Of a stretch of DNA of 64,000 bases, positions 14,038 to 53,172 are shown one piece after another. This stretch comes from Deltaproteobacteria bacterium (GTDB lineage: Bacteria > Desulfobacterota > Dissulfuribacteria > Dissulfuribacterales > UBA5754), in contig JAINCN010000021.1 in assembly GCA_036574075.1 (NCBI GenBank), positions 64,652-128,651 on the forward strand, in the 5' to 3' direction. The translations under genes and the position numbers were made by a program. The notes under the pieces are model-generated. The model was given only the letters and a program-made list of their open reading frames with translations. It did not search any database and was not told where the DNA came from. The stretch's first letter is position 1; each line of letters starts with the position of its first letter.

Positions 14038-15503
14038 TGGTTCATCCTCATAGCGCCATTGCCGCGCGGAGAAATCGTGCAGGAGAGCACGCCCTCGGAC
14101 GTCTCTTCGGTGTAGCGTCTTTGGACGCGTTCGATGTCAAAGGCTGTCTGGAGGTTATGGATCGCGGCGTCCATCCGCTCGTTCGCCTCGCTAAAGGACG
14201 CAGAGGTGACGAGTTCGATTGCGATTTCCACGGGTTGGGCCAAGAGGGTGGCCGGGTCGCTGGAAACGAGATCCTGACCGGCGCTGTTCGCCATCCTAAG
14301 AGCCGGGGACGCGGCGGCCTTTGTCTCCCCGGATCCCTGGAGACCTTGGACAGCCCGGTTCAGGTCCATTTTTTTGATCTTCACCCCGTCAGGGAGCCTG
14401 TTTGCGAGGGTGACAAGGATCTCGTCCAGCCCGTGCTCGGCCCTGGCCCTGTTCCAGATGGCTGCAAGACGTTCGCGGGCCTCCCGTTCCGGTTGCGGCG
14501 GGAGTGTCTCCTCGATGAGCCGTCTTTTTGCCTCAACTTCCCGGGTACGATTGGCCAGATCGGCCTCAAGGGAAGAGTTCGTCCGCGCAAGGACAAGGGT
14601 GCCCGCAAGCAAAAGGGCGATTGCAGGAAGCGCGGCAAGGCTCGCCCATTTTGATACCTTCCCGATCGCGTAGGCCATCTTCCAGTCTTTAGGCACGAGA
14701 TCGTAGGCCGGGTCGGCGAACGCCACACCAAAGAGGTCAGGATGATCGTCCACCAGAGAAGGGTCCTGGACGTCCAGGATGGAATCCCACGCCGGTTGCA
14801 GGATATTCCGGCCGCCGAGCATGGCTGGGCACGAGCGCCGTTGCGGGCCGGTGGCGATGAAATGGCTGATATCGAGATCGTACTGCCTACGGGCCGTCTG
14901 GCTGACCATGTCGAAGGTCTGGGCCAGCATCGACTCCCGGAGGGATCCGTCCGTGTCAAGGGGGACAATCTGGGCGTGGAGAAGGACCGCGCCTGAAACA
15001 ACCATGATTTCAAGGAGTTCTTTATGGAAGATGGCAACGAGGACAGGTTCCTGGGTGAGGCGTCCCACGAGCCCGGCGATCGAGGCATGGCTGGGGATAA
15101 GGCCCGTGAGCCTCCATTCGCGCGCGCCGTGGCCGAGTTCCAAAATGGGTGCTACATCGCTTTCAGGCAGGGTGAGGACGGAGAGAATCTGATTTCCTGA
15201 GGCAGTGGTGCCGAGGGCCTTTATGCGATGGGCCACAGCCTGGCCTTCCGGCCACAGACCGCTCTGGCGGATCCGCTCAAGGACGCGGAGATTGAGGATT
15301 TCTTGTTTCGTTTTCGGGAACACTTCCCTGAAGATATGGATCTTCCTTGACGGGATGGTAACGGTCACTTCACCTGCGTTTACAGGCGCAGGGCCATGGA
15401 TCTCCTCGATCTGTCCGAAAGACGGCCTGTTAGGCGGTCCAGTGACGCGGACCCTGAGCCACGTCCCTCTTTCCTTTCCGGGTTTTGCGTAAAAACGGCC
15501 CAT
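14034..15503 (-). CDS. fused PilM-like / PilN-like pilus assembly protein (MshI-like)
   Basis: Start moved to the ATG at 15503 (MGRFYAKPGKE...) because the upstream part of the 15641 ORF lies inside the repeat element. About 330 aa cytoplasmic domain, a TM segment (WASLAALPAIALLLAGTLVLA), then coiled-coil and periplasmic domains. Confidence 0.55.
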   Translation of the reverse strand: MGRFYAKPGKERGTWLRVRVTGPPNRPSFGQIEEIHGPAPVNAGEVTVTIPSRKIHIFREVFPKTKQEILNLRVLERIRQSGLWPEGQAVAHRIKALGTTASGNQILSVLTLPESDVAPILELGHGAREWRLTGLIPSHASIAGLVGRLTQEPVLVAIFHKELLEIMVVSGAVLLHAQIVPLDTDGSLRESMLAQTFDMVSQTARRQYDLDISHFIATGPQRRSCPAMLGGRNILQPAWDSILDVQDPSLVDDHPDLFGVAFADPAYDLVPKDWKMAYAIGKVSKWASLAALPAIALLLAGTLVLARTNSSLEADLANRTREVEAKRRLIEETLPPQPEREARERLAAIWNRARAEHGLDEILVTLANRLPDGVKIKKMDLNRAVQGLQGSGETKAAASPALRMANSAGQDLVSSDPATLLAQPVEIAIELVTSASFSEANERMDAAIHNLQTAFDIERVQRRYTEETSEGVLSCTISPRGNGAMRMNQ

Positions 15504-15538
15504 TCTGGTTCTTTCGGCCTCAAGGCGTTTGCAAGAAG

Positions 15539-15712
15539 CCTGAATCCGTGATCCTACGCCCGGGATATTTGTTTCGTGCGGCAAATAGCCCCCGTCCATT
15601 GGGGCAGATTTGCCGACAGCGCCCATCCATGGGCGCTTCACTCCACAAATACCCCGGCCGTAGGCTTATGGTGTGAAATCGAAAGGGTGAGTGCATATCT
15701 CACGGATTCAGG
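15539..15712 (+). mobile_element. MITE-like structured repeat, full copy 1 (174 bp)
   Basis: 13-bp terminal inverted repeats CCTGAATCCGTGA (15539-15551) and TCACGGATTCAGG (15700-15712). Flanked by the direct repeat AAGAAG (15533-15538 and 15713-15718). The interior has nested hairpins and is near-identical to the reverse complement of 47303-47477. Confidence 0.75.
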
Positions 15713-16602
15713 AAGAAGATGGGCAAAGCCGGCAGCATGCGCCGCATAAAGGCGAAAAGACCCCCCTGACATGGTTCAGGCAGGGTCTCTCGCGCGCGAG
15801 CGATGTGCTCTGCTCCGATTTTGTGCGATCCAGAGGCCGCGACCATGAGGAGCGAGCGGTCCATGAGCCTGTTTATAAGCCTGGGGATCCCGGATGTTGC
15901 CCGTTGGATGCGGCCGACGGCCCTTTGCGAGGGCTTGAGATCGGCCCTTCCCGCCCGGGCGAGCCTGAAAGCGATGTATTCTTCGGTCTCCGCCCTTGTC
16001 AGGGGGCGAAGCCGCTCCTGCACGACAACGCGCTGTGAGAGCTGGCGGAGACGCGGGTCTTCGAGGAGCCCTTCCAGCTCGGGTTGCCCCATGAGGACGA
16101 TCTGGAGGAGTTTCCGGGATGATGTCTCCACGTTTGACAGGAGGCGCAGCTGCTCCAGGGTCTCGACCGGGAGATCCTGGGCCTCGTCCACTATGATGAG
16201 AAGCTCCCTTCCTTGCCCTGCAAGTTCAAGGAGCCTCGTCTGGAAACGCCTGAGAAGCGTGCCCAGGTCTTCGCCATCCGCGTCACAGCCCATGTCGTCA
16301 AGTATCAGTCTCAGGAGACCAGGAGGGTCCACAGCAGGGGTAAGTACCAGGACCGGCACCTTTTGGGTCCCGATCTCCTGGAGAAGGAGCTTCAAAAGGA
16401 GTGTCTTTCCGGTGCCCGGAGGGCCGGTAAGCACCATGAAGCCCTCACCCCGCCCAATTCCGTATTTCAGTGCCTCCTTTGCGGCAATGTGGGGCCGCGC
16501 CGGATAAAAGAAGGCCGGGTCAGGAGAGAGACGAAAGGGCGCATCCCTGAATCCTAAGCACCCCAGATAGTCATCATGGATGGTCTCCGCCATATCTTTC
16601 AA
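15700..16602 (-). CDS. ExeA/MshM-family AAA ATPase
   Basis: 300-aa ORF. Walker A LTGPPGTGKTLLLK and Walker B LLIIVDEAQDL, with ExeA/GspA/MshM-like architecture. The last three codons and the TGA stop (LNP*) are encoded by the terminal inverted repeat of the element. Confidence 0.85.
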   Translation of the reverse strand: MKDMAETIHDDYLGCLGFRDAPFRLSPDPAFFYPARPHIAAKEALKYGIGRGEGFMVLTGPPGTGKTLLLKLLLQEIGTQKVPVLVLTPAVDPPGLLRLILDDMGCDADGEDLGTLLRRFQTRLLELAGQGRELLIIVDEAQDLPVETLEQLRLLSNVETSSRKLLQIVLMGQPELEGLLEDPRLRQLSQRVVVQERLRPLTRAETEEYIAFRLARAGRADLKPSQRAVGRIQRATSGIPRLINRLMDRSLLMVAASGSHKIGAEHIARARETLPEPCQGGLFAFMRRMLPALPIFFLNP

Positions 16603-41877: not shown

Positions 41878-41983
41878 CCCTTATGGGACGCGGAGTCAGG
41901 GGGCTATTTGCCCTGTCTGCCCTGTCTACCGAAAGACTGGCTCACGATACAAATGCCCCGGCCGCCGGATTATCGCAAAAAAC

Positions 41984-46147: not shown

Positions 46148-47251
46148 CTATTTTGATGGACCAGAAGCCCGACGTTCGCGCAGGACCTCTTCAACCTCAT
46201 GCCAGAAGGCATCAAGGAGATCCTCCTCCTTCACCTTTCGTACGATCCTCTCACCCCGGAAGATGATCCCCACCCCTTTGCCCCCTGCCACACCCACATC
46301 CGCCTCCCGGGCCTCGCCTGGTCCGTTCACGACACAGCCCATGACCGCTATCTTGATGGGTTCGGCAATGGCCCTTGCCCGCTCCTCGACAGAACGCGCA
46401 AGGGAAAAGAGGTCGATCTCGCAGCGGCCGCACGTGGGGCAGGAAATTATTTCCGGGCCACGCTGCCGAATCTTCAGTGCACGCAGGATCTCATAGGCAA
46501 CGGCGACCTCTTCTACAGGGTCCCTGGTGAGGGAGACCCGAAAGGTATCCCCGATCCCCTCCCGAAGGAGCCCGCCGATGGCGATGGCGCTCTTTACCGT
46601 CCCGGGGATGAGACCGCCGGCCTCGGTGACACCGAGGTGGAGGGGGAAATCTGTCCGTTGGGAGAGAAGCCCATAGGCCTCCAGGGTGGTGAGAACATCG
46701 GAGGACTTGATGGAGATCTTGATAGCCTCCCAACCCCTTTCCACGATAAGGCCAACGTTTCGCAGGGCGCTTTCCACAAGGGCCTCGGGGGTTCCCCCCC
46801 CATATTTTGTGCGGATGTCCTTCTCGAGGGACCCGGCGTTGACCCCGACCCGGATAGGCACGCCCCGCTCCTTGGCCGCATCGACGACGCGGGAAAGCCT
46901 TTCCGCCCCTCCGATGTTTCCTGGATTGATGCGGATCCCGTCAGCCCCGGCCTGGATGGAGGCGACTGCAAGACGCCAGTCGAAGTGGATGTCTGCAATC
47001 AAAGGCACAGAAATTGCTTTCTTGATCTCTGAAATCGCTGCAGCAGCAGCACCGTCCAGCACCGCCACCCTGACGATCTCGCATCCGACCTCCTCGAGAC
47101 GCCGGATCTGGGCAACCGTCGCGGAGATGTCCCGAGTGTCCGTGTTGGTCATGGACTGGACGACGACCGGGTTGTCGCCTCCTATGGCGACAGGACCGAC
47201 ATGAATGACACGGGTCTTTTTCCGAAGGGCTGAAAGGCGTGGCGTTGACAT
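46148..47251 (-). CDS. ispG: 4-hydroxy-3-methylbut-2-en-1-yl diphosphate synthase (IspG/GcpE)
   Basis: 367-aa ORF with VVVQSMTNTDT, RINPGNIG and SCPTCGRC...GCVVNGPGE motifs. Confidence 0.93.
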   Translation of the reverse strand: MSTPRLSALRKKTRVIHVGPVAIGGDNPVVVQSMTNTDTRDISATVAQIRRLEEVGCEIVRVAVLDGAAAAAISEIKKAISVPLIADIHFDWRLAVASIQAGADGIRINPGNIGGAERLSRVVDAAKERGVPIRVGVNAGSLEKDIRTKYGGGTPEALVESALRNVGLIVERGWEAIKISIKSSDVLTTLEAYGLLSQRTDFPLHLGVTEAGGLIPGTVKSAIAIGGLLREGIGDTFRVSLTRDPVEEVAVAYEILRALKIRQRGPEIISCPTCGRCEIDLFSLARSVEERARAIAEPIKIAVMGCVVNGPGEAREADVGVAGGKGVGIIFRGERIVRKVKEEDLLDAFWHEVEEVLRERRASGPSK

Positions 47252-47302
47252 GAAAGGGCATGATATATCAAAGCTATATCACAGGCAATGAATGGAATTA
47301 TC

Positions 47303-47477
47303 CCTGAATCCGTTGAGATATGAACTTAACTTGGCAATTTTTCACAATAAGCCGACGTTCGGGGTATTTGTGAAGTGAGGCGCCCATGGACGGGCGCCGT
47401 CGGCAAATCTGCCCCCATGGATGGGGGCTATTTGCCGCACGGAACAAATACCCCGAACGTCGGCTCACGGATTCAGG
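47303..47477 (-). mobile_element. MITE-like structured repeat, full copy 2 (175 bp, inverted relative to copy 1)
   Basis: Terminal inverted repeats CCTGAATCCGTTGA (47303-47316) and TCACGGATTCAGG (47465-47477). Flanked by the direct repeat TTATC (47298-47302 and 47478-47482). A perfect 21-bp long-range stem GCCGACGTTCGGGGTATTTGT/ACAAATACCCCGAACGTCGGC encloses two hairpins. Confidence 0.75.
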
Positions 47478-47502
47478 TTATCACCATAGCGAGGTATCGA
47501 CC

Positions 47503-48078
47503 ATGAAAATCACACCCGAAATCGCCTCCCTGCTCGCAAAAAAGGGCACATCCTCACCTGCCGGCGAGGCCCCCAAAACCTCGGCGCAAAACTTCGTTGC
47601 ATTCTTCGAAAAGGCCCTCGCCAGCGAGGGCCCCTTTCCGTACAAGGGGTGCTCCGAACCCTCCCCACTCCTTGTCCCTCCATCGGAGACAGACGCACCT
47701 CCACAGACCTCCGCCCAGCACCTCGTCCATTTTTTCCGCAACGCCCTCGCGTACGAGTCGGCCTCCCTGGCCCCTGCCCCACCATCCCCTGACCCTGACA
47801 CAGCAGAATCATCCGGGCTCAGCCCGACCCAGACAGCCTCCCTTGCCGTTTTGGATCGAACGCTCTCTCTCCTTGACAGGATAGAGGGTCTCCTGATAGA
47901 CCAAAACAAAACATCATCATCGGATCTCGTGTCCGCCATCCGGGAAGGGGTGGAAGACCTGCGAGAACTGCGAGACCGGCTCGACCCTGCCGACCCCCTC
48001 CGGGAACAGATGGACGCGATCGGGGCCCTTGCCTATACGGAATCGGAAAAGGTAACACGGGGTGACTACGACACCTGA
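47503..48078 (+). CDS. hypothetical protein (Pro/Ser-rich, internal sequence repeat)
   Basis: ATG at 47503 is preceded by GAGG (47491-47494). 191 aa with internal repeat KTSAQNFVAFFEKALASE / QTSAQHLVHFFRNALAYE. No family recognised. Confidence 0.5.
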   Translation: MKITPEIASLLAKKGTSSPAGEAPKTSAQNFVAFFEKALASEGPFPYKGCSEPSPLLVPPSETDAPPQTSAQHLVHFFRNALAYESASLAPAPPSPDPDTAESSGLSPTQTASLAVLDRTLSLLDRIEGLLIDQNKTSSSDLVSAIREGVEDLRELRDRLDPADPLREQMDAIGALAYTESEKVTRGDYDT

Positions 48079-48229
48079 GAAGAAAAGGCGCATACCCGTC
48101 ATCGCCATCACCGGTTTTGGCTATTATGCGGAGGAGCTCGCCCACGAAAAGAAGGCCGACGCCATCCTAAGTAAACCGTTCGATGTCCAGCAGCTAAAAG
48201 AGACCGTCTCGGGTTTCCTCGAAAAATAA
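48062..48229 (+). pseudogene. receiver (REC) domain C-terminal fragment, probable gene remnant
   Basis: A short frame reads ...KKRRIPVIAITGFGYYAEELAHEKKADAILSKPFDVQQLKETVSGFLEK*. This is the beta4-alpha4-beta5-alpha5 part of a response-regulator receiver, including the conserved T and KP. No REC N-terminal half (DD pair, phospho-acceptor Asp) appears upstream in any frame. Confidence 0.5.
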
Positions 48230-48254
48230 CGGCCTTCTCCCGCCCCCCTTTCTC

Positions 48255-48767
48255 GTGGACTGCACGCAGATCTTTACAGGGCTCGCAGCGAGCCTCGTTC
48301 TTTCCCTCCTTGGACTCGTCGGAACCATCCTTCCCGCCCTGCCAGGGACTTCGCTCATACTCGCGGGCATCCTTGCCTACGGCCTCATGGCGGGCTTTTC
48401 CCGCCTCACTCCCGGCTTTCTCGCTGGCGAATTCGTGCTCACCTGCATCACCTTCCTCGTGGACTACATCGCAACGGCCTATGGGACACGGAGGGCCGGA
48501 GGCTCGCGGGCCGCGGTCTGGGGGGCGGTGGCCGGGACCTTTCTCGGCCTTCTGGCCGGTCCTTGGGGGCTCATCCTCGGCCCTCTCCTCGGGGCGGTTG
48601 CCGGCGAGCTCCTCATGGGAAAGGAACTGGCCGATGCCTTCCGCTCCGGGGTGGGGAGCTTTCTCGGTTTCCTTGGAGGGACCGTGGTCAAGCTCTTCAT
48701 TGCAGGCATCATGATCGCCTGGTTCCTCTGGAGGATCGGGCCTGACGTAAACGCCTGCATGCCCTGA
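48255..48767 (+). CDS. DUF456-like membrane protein
   Basis: 170-aa ORF with a GTG start. Four to five TM segments and Gly-rich LGLLAGPWGLILGPLLGAVAGELL, typical of the DUF456 family. Confidence 0.7.
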   Translation: MDCTQIFTGLAASLVLSLLGLVGTILPALPGTSLILAGILAYGLMAGFSRLTPGFLAGEFVLTCITFLVDYIATAYGTRRAGGSRAAVWGAVAGTFLGLLAGPWGLILGPLLGAVAGELLMGKELADAFRSGVGSFLGFLGGTVVKLFIAGIMIAWFLWRIGPDVNACMP

Positions 48768-48780
48768 AACGGCGGAATCC

Positions 48781-49737
48781 ATGCCATCTGACCATATCCC
48801 GGACATATCGGTCGTCATCCCCGTTTATAACGAGGCAGAAAACCTCATCCCCCTCGTCCACGCCGTAAGAGATGCCCTGACGCCAGAGCAGATGTCCTTC
48901 GAGGTCCTCCTTGTGGACGACGGGAGCACGGATGGAAGCGCCGAAATACTAAAGGACCTGGCACGAAAGTTTCCCGAGGTCAGGGCCGTGATCCTTCGCC
49001 GAAACTTCGGGCAGAGCGCGGCAATGACCGCGGGCTTCGACCATGCCAGGGGCAGGATCCTTATCTCCATGGACGGGGACCTACAAAACGACCCGAAGGA
49101 CATCCCGAGGATCGTCTCCCGCCTCAATGAAGGCTACGACCTGGTGAGCGGATGGAGGCGGGACAGAAAGGATCCTTTTCTCTCTCGAAGGCTCCCATCG
49201 ATCCTCGCAAATCGGATCATCGGAATGGCCACCGGGGTGAGGCTCCACGACTATGGATGCTCCCTCAAGGCATACAGGCGTGAGGTGACGGACAACCTCC
49301 TCCTCTACGGGGAACTCCACCGGTTCATCCCGGTGCTCGCCGATCTCTACGGAGTGAAGATAGCGGAGATGGAGGTCACCCACCATCCGCGGACAAAAGG
49401 CAGGAGCAAGTACGGTATCGGCAGGACCTACCGCGTCCTCCTCGACCTCCTCCTCATGCTCTTTTTTCGGCGCTTCGCCACCCGTCCGCTTCAGTTCTTC
49501 GGCCTGAGCGGAGGAGCGCTCTTTCTTGGCGGATTCGCCATCGAGAGCTATCTCGCGTGGGTAAAGCTCTGGCTCGGCGAGGACATCGGCTCGCGCCCGC
49601 TCCTCCTTCTCGGAGCACTTCTCATCATCACGGGCATCATGCTCTTCGGTACCGGACTCATCGCCGAACTCGTGATCCGTACCTACTACGAGGCCACAGG
49701 GAAACGGATCTACTCCGTCCGGGAGATCCTCGAGTGA
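48781..49737 (+). CDS. family 2 glycosyltransferase (polyprenyl-phosphate sugar synthase, ArnC/GtrB/DPM1-like)
   Basis: 318-aa ORF with SVVIPVYNEAENL, LLVDDGSTDGS and MDGDLQNDP (DxD). Two C-terminal TM helices. Confidence 0.88.
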   Translation: MPSDHIPDISVVIPVYNEAENLIPLVHAVRDALTPEQMSFEVLLVDDGSTDGSAEILKDLARKFPEVRAVILRRNFGQSAAMTAGFDHARGRILISMDGDLQNDPKDIPRIVSRLNEGYDLVSGWRRDRKDPFLSRRLPSILANRIIGMATGVRLHDYGCSLKAYRREVTDNLLLYGELHRFIPVLADLYGVKIAEMEVTHHPRTKGRSKYGIGRTYRVLLDLLLMLFFRRFATRPLQFFGLSGGALFLGGFAIESYLAWVKLWLGEDIGSRPLLLLGALLIITGIMLFGTGLIAELVIRTYYEATGKRIYSVREILE

Positions 49738-53132: not shown

Positions 53133-53172
53133 CCTCCCACAAATACCCTGGCCGTAGGCTCACGGATTCAGG
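53133..53172 (-). mobile_element. truncated copy (solo end) of the MITE-like repeat
   Basis: CTCCCACAAATACCCTGGCCGTAGGCTCACGGATTCAGG matches one arm plus the terminal inverted repeat of copies 1 and 2. The rest of the element is absent. Confidence 0.6.

Follow-up and report, generated by a model that had tools for sequence, protein, structure and literature searches.

A 175-bp element at positions 47303-47477 of a 64,000-nucleotide stretch of contig JAINCN010000021.1, from a Deltaproteobacteria bacterium, is the subject of this analysis, and the whole stretch is called the window below. The element, designated copy 2, is the end-to-end reverse complement of a 174-bp sequence at 15539-15712 (copy 1), with 85% identity in the alignment. 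We consider it likely that the element is a 175-bp non-autonomous MITE (a miniature transposable element with inverted repeats), which carries a TwoAYGGAY unit as its cargo and is mobilised by a transposase supplied in trans. As is the case for MITEs, it is short and has no transposase gene, it is bounded by terminal inverted repeats and target-site duplications, and its copies are dispersed and differ in presence and absence. From the ends, the duplications, the dispersal and the presence/absence differences we infer a DNA transposon of the cut-or-copy kind, dependent on a transposase acting in trans.

Anatomy and mobility of the element

Both ends of both full copies are formed by the inverted repeat CCTGAATCCGTGA, with a 1-nt insertion at the left end of copy 2, and an asymmetric 33-nt spacer beside one of the inverted repeats is common to both copies. 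With up to 2 mismatches allowed, the 13-mer CCTGAATCCGTGA occurs 10 times in the window compared with 2.4 expected occurrences, and none of 100 shuffles reached 10. The original prediction of a second, inverted full copy including the asymmetric spacer is borne out by the end-to-end identity given above, and the TTATC duplication claimed for it is found on both sides. The element is 174-175 bp long, and the sole open reading frame (ORF) starting inside it is a spurious extension of the downstream gene. The parts of copy 2 are the following.

47298-47302, no strand: left target-site duplication of copy 2, TTATC (direct reading; same as 47478-47482)
47303-47316, + strand: 5' terminal inverted repeat of copy 2, CCTGAATCCGTTGA, with a 1-nt insertion compared with CCTGAATCCGTGA; pairs with 47465-47477 in the fold
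47317-47349, + strand: asymmetric A+T-rich spacer from the 5' inverted repeat to the outer stem; the least conserved part
47340-47475, + strand: match to Rfam RF01731, TwoAYGGAY (47.3 bits, full model 1-168)
47350-47371, + strand: 5' arm of the outer stem (P1), 22 bp (folds, pair counts)
47379-47398, + strand: hairpin 1, GGCGCCC-ATGGAC-GGGCGCC, with its AYGGAY loop at 47386-47391; the closing pair is compensated between copies
47401-47437, + strand: hairpin 2, GGCAAAT..GCCCCCA-TGGA-TGGGGGC..ATTTGCC, with its AYGGAY loop (ATGGAT) at 47417-47422
47444-47465, + strand: 3' arm of the outer stem (P1) (folds, pair counts)
47465-47477, + strand: 3' terminal inverted repeat of copy 2, TCACGGATTCAGG; contains ACGGAT
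47478-47482, no strand: right target-site duplication of copy 2, TTATC (direct reading)

The ACGGAT inside TCACGGATTCAGG also fits AYGGAY and gives a third such word on the sense strand of copy 2, about 30 nt 5' of the downstream start codon. The position of this word in TCACGGATTCAGG, at the 3' end of every element of the superfamily described below, may be a coincidence.

The two full copies stand at unrelated sites and in opposite orientation, and each has its own flush direct repeat. In copy 1 this repeat is the 6-bp AAGAAG (15533-15538 and 15713-15718); no flush repeat of 5 bp can be placed there, so the duplication of 5 bp originally given for that copy has to be corrected. A contig of a relative from another sample (L125), whose IspG is 89% identical, contains the homologous region between the hypothetical gene and ispG. 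The region is 92 bp long there and the element is absent from it, and the flanks of this empty site are recognisably homologous. In the source sample, two contigs flanking copy 2 (L121:1-92 and L126:1-53; Logan assembly, SRR15502205) stop within the element, the first of them in the spacer and its counterpart in the outer-stem 3' arm or vice versa, so that the assembly was interrupted at the repeated or palindromic core. The claim that the element is mobile is thus supported by the empty site in the relative, as well as by 5-bp duplications in the listed elements with the same ends, about 50 times more frequent than in controls (see below).

In addition to copy 2, one full copy and two remnants were found, which makes two full copies and two remnants in 64 kb.

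15539-15712, TwoAYGGAY-sense strand -: copy 1 (127.6 bits with a covariance model built from the two cores)
41899-41975 (about), + strand: decayed 3' half of a copy, GGGGGCTATTTGCC ... ACAAATGCCCCGGCCGCCGGATTATC (BLAST, alignment)
53137-53172, + strand: truncated copy, with the P1 3' arm ACAAATACCCTGGCCGTAGGC joined to the inverted repeat TCACGGATTCAGG (BLAST, alignment)

The decayed half-copy lies about 80 nt 5' of rpmB, and the truncated copy stands between two divergent genes, TonB_C and DivIVA. No third full copy was detected in the window by the covariance model of the two cores.

Fold, paired substitutions and the TwoAYGGAY core

The rod in which an outer stem encloses both hairpins, as described in the original prediction, was reproduced in RNA and DNA folds. 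As RNA, copy 2 gives -104.7 kcal/mol on the + strand (z -13.55) and -106.5 on the - strand, and as DNA it gives -64.2 kcal/mol (z -13.36). Its rod consists of the paired ends and a perfect 22-bp outer stem, which encloses the two hairpins. Copy 1 folds into the same but weaker shape (-89.9 kcal/mol, z -8.7), with three imperfect positions in the outer stem (two mismatches and one G-U pair) and two pairs lost from hairpin 2. The loops are ATGGAC/ATGGAT in copy 2, as against ATGGAT/ATGGAC in copy 1. In each of the two loop substitutions one pyrimidine replaces another, and AYGGAY is kept in both loops of each copy.

When evaluated on a 281-nt slice, copy 2 matches Rfam RF01731 with 47.3 bits (gathering score 43, E 6.7e-7), and both of its hairpins align to the AUGGAU/AUGGAU loops of the model. 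A run of the whole window against Rfam at gathering thresholds with default filters gave no match, which, from the description of the tool, is probably accounted for by the stricter filters on longer input. Copy 1 may be counted as TwoAYGGAY only because it is 85% identical to copy 2. The original prediction had set a match to a known Rfam family against its own claim, and in part this is the outcome, as the core scores above the gathering threshold of RF01731 and the structure is not new. Since the core belongs to an existing Rfam family and MITEs are well known, the element is not categorically new.

The account of TwoAYGGAY in Weinberg et al. 2010 (PMC2864571) gives a pair of hairpins with AYGGAY loops, a P1 that is often very long (about 24 bp; 22 bp here, long in both cases) and no assigned function. 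The range given in that account is human gut metagenomes, Gammaproteobacteria and Clostridia; the host here belongs to Thermodesulfobacteriota and stands outside it. Terminal inverted repeats, target duplications and mobility are not mentioned in the text of that account. The alignment of PMC2864571 (TwoAYGGAY.sto) contains several copies in Psychromonas ingrahamii, without the ends found here. In the gut copies (e.g. BABG01005079.1, BAAU01025327.1) the core stands at the tip of an imperfect inverted repeat, with about 60 nt more on each side; their outer flanks are conserved but other than the ends found here, and their loops are ACAAGGAUGU or ACACGGAUGU. The former presumably fits the selected CsrA-binding consensus. 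In copy 2 the GGA motif is present in each of the two hairpin loops (AUGGA). Gardner and Eldai 2014 (PMC4333381) reported that the TwoAYGGAY loops match the CsrA-binding motif and proposed that CsrA is sequestered, with validation in progress; we found no report in the literature testing this proposal. The possibility that the element binds CsrA is drawn from this published hypothesis.

In the two-copy alignment, changes on both sides that stay paired were found at 3 of the 58 pairs. Columns 52-159 (G-C/U-A) and 57-154 (C-G/U-A) belong to the outer stem, and columns 77-96 (A-U/G-C) close hairpin 1. Beyond these, the copies differ by one G-C to G-U change and by the loss of pairing at four pairs in copy 1. 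With 6 changes on the left and 7 on the right among the 58 pairs, 4 coincide at paired positions, far more than would be expected if the two sides changed independently (hypergeometric P = 0.001). On the other hand, the shuffle control is weak at n=2, with the observed value reached in 60 of 500 shuffles. The arm in the remnant at 53137 approximates the complement of the copy 1 5' arm, from which the consensus arm of the family is taken to be ACAAATACCCCGGCCGTAGGC. When compared with this consensus, the outer stem of copy 2 shows three fully compensated pairs and zero uncompensated changes, and the imperfect stem positions of copy 1 are single changes private to that copy. Identity between the copies is 87% in the core versus 70% in the spacer (Fisher P = 0.03).

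The covariation originally claimed therefore stands as three compensated pairs, but the conclusion of selection rather than drift was overstated for two copies, which fit selection on the structure and arm-to-arm conversion in the palindrome equally well. The rod may have been kept either because a single-stranded form is needed (RNA, or single-stranded DNA in replication or transposition) or because the arms homogenise each other. That the structure is conserved is supported independently by the Rfam family, flagged for covariation in the account by Weinberg 2010 (PMC2864571), and not by the window.

Elements sharing the same ends

The scan pattern for elements with the same ends was CCTGAATCCG, 135-165 nt and CGGATTCAGG, with one genome taken per species. 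At least 130 such elements were found in at least 120 loci, with lengths of 155-184 bp; what follows on their hosts, families and flanks holds among the matches listed. The carriers include a metagenome-assembled genome (MAG) of Reinekea (many loci, more than from any other genome), Thiotrichaceae, Chromatiales, Methylococcales, Geobacter, Oryzomonas, Geobacillus, Ruminococcus, a Veillonellaceae MAG, Aquificaceae and Verrucomicrobia. For the 128 elements with full flanks, duplications were counted against shifted or re-paired flanks as controls. An exact flush 5-bp repeat was found in 70 of the 128, compared with 1-1.5 in the controls (about 50 times more), and a 5-bp repeat with one mismatch in 24 more; repeats of 4 bp were found in 3 and of 6 bp in 4. 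The duplicated sites are 83% A+T versus 47% in the background and read roughly T-T-w-A-A. The elements sort into two families, a large one (about 160 bp) and one of about 175 bp in Geobacter-type bacteria, and many singletons, and the interior of the window element is shared by none of them. From the same ends, the duplications and the varied interiors it follows that the 13-bp ends define a superfamily of non-autonomous transposons.

The largest family, of about 160 bp, comprises 87 of the 130 elements (e.g. L026:3615-3775, L023:4963-5122, L049:3986-4145, L022:6243-6404) and has hosts in Gammaproteobacteria, Geothermobacter, Desulfobulbus and Aquificaceae. It forms one long hairpin, one strand of which folds on average 22 kcal/mol better than the other, and it contains many conserved G-U pairs as well as compensated changes in 25 of 43 predicted pairs. 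Its appearance is that of a MITE whose cargo is a structured RNA specific to one strand. Its orientation relative to co-directional genes (15 versus 7) is not significant. The family of about 175 bp has 17 copies, in Geobacter, Oryzomonas, Dongiaceae and other deltaproteobacteria-type MAGs, with a different rod-like interior. Its loci are as follows.

Family of about 175 bp: L012, L014, L017, L027, L030, L036, L059, L064, L068, L072, L078, L081, L082, L084, L102, L114, L120

No Rfam family was matched by the other same-end elements, the family of about 160 bp included. The only hit was a CRISPR repeat below threshold (CRISPR-DR4, L020:1167-1194, 32.9 versus 35 bits), which stands in a 76-bp gap between adjacent MITE copies of the Reinekea MAG. 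A 170-bp element of the Geobacillus type is present on a conjugative plasmid of Geobacillus stearothermophilus (L247, CP128455.1, 20556-20725, 98.8% identity) and on a plasmid of Anoxybacillus amylolyticus (NZ_CP015439.1, 1658-1827, 90%); both loci are without annotation, and no insertion sequence is annotated there. Longer variants with the same or nearly the same ends occur in a Desulfurivibrionaceae MAG, namely L077:3190-3515 (326 bp) and L077:7669-7943 (275 bp). The direct repeats at their flanks are AAAGAT (a 6-bp match) and TTAAA (5 bp), and the two variants could be larger deletion derivatives of a parent element.

Other searches were made with the interior and the core of the window element. 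The covariance model of the core gave zero matches in 100 fetched loci, and a metagenome scan with the interior pattern gave three chance matches only. Two scans of viral contigs yielded either no match at all or matches due to chance or phage genes. Plasmids were also searched by BLAST with the window element and with the main 160-bp family, and no match was obtained.

The partner search covered end pairs 0.2-5 kb apart, the ORFs beside solitary ends and the Pfam families of six such ORFs. All the genes found in this way were ordinary ones, and they were rejected as the autonomous partner. IS1380, by its ends and duplication length, and IS1634, by its duplication length, are candidate mobilising families; we take IS1380 to have ends starting with CC and duplications of 4-5 bp (5 bp and A+T-rich for ISEcp1), and IS1634 presumably makes duplications of 5-6 bp. 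These two families are a lead only, and no cognate transposase was found in the window, in the fetched loci (0.86 Mb) or on one plasmid.

A literature search for the end sequence returned primers only, and the breadth of the same-end superfamily appears to be undescribed in the literature searched. The same seems to hold there for a TwoAYGGAY unit with transposon ends and target duplications. A September 2026 preprint that deals with TwoAYGGAY at length (10.64898/2026.09.22.753630) was not among the results of a query for TwoAYGGAY with CsrA. Term counts for this preprint are 52 for TwoAYGGAY, 1 for 'transposase' and 0 for 'MITE', 'inverted repeat' and 'IS1380', and they suggest that it does not treat TwoAYGGAY as a transposon.

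When compared with the bacterial MITEs Chunjie, Correia, ERIC and Nezha, the window element is alike in being short and non-coding, with inverted and direct repeats and a very stable RNA fold. These MITEs also insert in or beside genes without destroying them, and Chunjie has been reported inside an undisturbed operon. However, Chunjie (Geobacter uraniireducens; PMC3184786) is A+T-rich and 178-235 bp long, with 21-bp inverted repeats and 9-bp direct repeats, whereas the window element has 13-bp ends and 5-6-bp duplications. Identity with Chunjie was rejected on these repeat lengths, and there is no testable sequence similarity to Chunjie, Correia, ERIC or Nezha. The inverted repeats of TIMEs and the Tn3 family, as we assume, start with GGGG. 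TIMEs (PMC4133298) are similar in being non-autonomous and inserting in A+T-rich DNA with 5- or 6-bp duplications, but they have 38-bp inverted repeats conserved with the Tn3 family, while the window element has 13-bp ends that begin with CCTGAATCC. The GGA in the hairpin loops and the two sites, at a spacing that one CsrA dimer could bridge, are features shared with CsrB, RsmY, RsmZ and CsrA-bound leaders. In contrast to CsrB, RsmY and RsmZ, the element has only two or three sites, it is mobile and multi-copy, and on its sense strand no promoter-like or terminator-like site of its own was found.

Gene context, alternative explanations and meaning

Copy 2 lies between ispG (46148-47251, - strand) and a gene for a 191-aa hypothetical protein (47503-48078, + strand), 51 nt from the start of the former and 25 nt from the start of the latter. 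Its location in this divergent region agrees with the original prediction, but the decayed receiver-domain gene said to be next to it was not recovered: the ORF at 48108-48818 (- strand) has no Pfam match, and the real gene there is DUF456 at 48255-48767 (+ strand, E 1.6e-39). The IspG of the host, an uncultured bacterium near Dissulfurimicrobium and Dissulfurirhabdus, is 70-76% identical to the named matches. A promoter-like site of ispG, TTGCCT-17-TATCAT (47288-47260), is left intact by copy 2. A second promoter-like site facing ispG, TTCATA-16-GATAAT (47324-47297), spans the spacer and the duplication, with the spacer giving the -35-like half.

Copy 1 is placed within an operon-like pair of - strand genes. 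The insertion is 4 codons short of the original stop in an AAA_22 ATPase gene (window 15700-15718 and 15520-15538), which now ends at the TGA of the copy 1 inverted repeat. The C-terminus has changed from ...IFLQTP* in the reconstructed empty site to ...IFFLNP* as observed, with the protein length kept. The 3' end of copy 1 is 35 nt 5' of the ATG of the next gene at 15503, and the old ATPase stop (15520-15522) is 16 nt 5' of the same ATG. An exact-protein look-up of this ATPase returned no record. Both full copies are thus 25-35 nt 5' of a start codon, with the AYGGAY strand as the sense strand. Two co-directional contexts are informative, those of copy 1 and of the rpmB remnant, and in each the sense strand is the one with AYGGAY, although n=2 proves nothing. 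On the sense strand in or beside either copy, no promoter-like or terminator-like site of the element's own was found, so read-through would place the rod in transcripts, and the transcript of the hypothetical gene probably has to pass through the rod of copy 2.

For a MITE with TwoAYGGAY cargo, the following course of events may be proposed. A DDE-type transposase encoded elsewhere would recognise the CCTGAATCCGTGA ends, as the anatomy suggests; it would excise or copy the element and insert it at a staggered cut in A+T-rich DNA, and repair of this cut would leave a duplication of 5 bp, occasionally 6 bp. The presumed cargo is the TwoAYGGAY unit, a long outer stem around two hairpins with AYGGAY loops. 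Read-through transcription would then place the rod in the 5' leader (copy 2) or in the intra-operon spacer (copy 1), where the two GGA loops would fit the published proposal that TwoAYGGAY RNAs bind dimeric CsrA.

Several points weigh against this reading. The empty site in L125 has diverged, so that an exact single-copy TTATC target is unreadable there. The contig breaks fit a repeat, but the palindrome alone could cause them. Further copies of the window subfamily outside the window were not found among the at least 120 fetched loci with the same ends, by the metagenome scan or in plasmids. The search for a transposase gene bounded by CCTGAATCCGTGA-type ends, which the original prediction had proposed, came back empty for the window, for 0.86 Mb of fetched loci and for one plasmid, that of Geobacillus. 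Copy 1 alone gave no match to Rfam at E <= 1, and no csrA-like ORF was found in the 64-kb window. The transcription of the element is only presumed.

One alternative is a purely selfish MITE without an RNA role, in which hairpins of single-stranded DNA, or the binding of the loops by a transposase or host factor, serve transposition, and the compensated changes come from arm-to-arm templated repair, not from selection on RNA. We regard this as possible, though somewhat unlikely. It is in keeping with a fold of equal strength on either strand and under DNA parameters; the sole mark of the strand is the G-U pair in the outer stem of copy 1, which is an A-C mismatch on the opposite strand. The stem of copy 2, perfect after three double and zero single changes, is what arm conversion would give, and both the loop-like ACGGAT within the 3' inverted repeat itself and the negative search for sense-strand promoter-like or terminator-like sites agree with a selfish element. 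Nevertheless, the strand-specific loop words are conserved across the Rfam family, including taxa without these ends (Psychromonas, gut Clostridia). In the family of about 160 bp, the 22 kcal/mol better fold of one strand, together with the many G-U pairs, argues for one functional strand.

If an ordinary TwoAYGGAY small RNA or cis-regulatory gene had instead been duplicated by recombination, the outer repeats would be an extension of the closing stem, and the Rfam match and the very long P1 stems described for TwoAYGGAY would be accounted for. Flush direct repeats around both copies are at odds with such a duplication, as are the unrelated sites and opposite orientation and the absence of the element from the orthologous site of the relative. 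Moreover, among the matches listed, unrelated interiors in many phyla are enclosed by these 13-bp ends and flanked by 5-bp duplications, and the element has no detectable sense-strand promoter-like or terminator-like site of its own, so we consider duplication of an RNA gene very improbable and strongly disfavoured. It is scarcely credible that the element is a REP-like or IS200/IS605-type palindrome moved by a tyrosine HUH transposase, or that it acts as double-stranded DNA in the form of a cruciform or a protein-binding palindrome, even though it is G+C-rich, hairpin-forming, intergenic and repeated. To our knowledge, REP-like and IS200/IS605 elements do not have terminal inverted repeats with target duplications; both are present here and are statistically supported across the superfamily, and REP/RAYT or IS200/IS605-type identity was rejected on this ground. 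Arms of 22 bp that stand 72 nt apart are also unfavourable for the extrusion of a cruciform from duplex DNA.

A broader reading of the MITE with TwoAYGGAY cargo is speculative, and we think it rather doubtful. The CCTGAATCCGTGA ends would mark an undescribed multi-phylum superfamily that carries different strand-specific RNA modules, namely TwoAYGGAY in the window and the G-U-rich hairpin of about 160 nt in Gammaproteobacteria and others. By planting CsrA-binding hairpins in 5' leaders and operons, the TwoAYGGAY cargo would rewire post-transcriptional control.

Rfam has listed TwoAYGGAY since 2010, with no function demonstrated for it, and a copy bounded by transposon ends and target duplications suggests that at least some members spread as mobile DNA. 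Such spread changes how the genomic distribution and the covariation of TwoAYGGAY should be read. The same ends around unrelated rod-like interiors in many phyla point to one widespread transposase that mobilises varied structured cargos. If the GGA loops do not bind CsrA, the element is one more bacterial MITE family; if they do, it would be a means of spreading regulator-binding sites through the genome.

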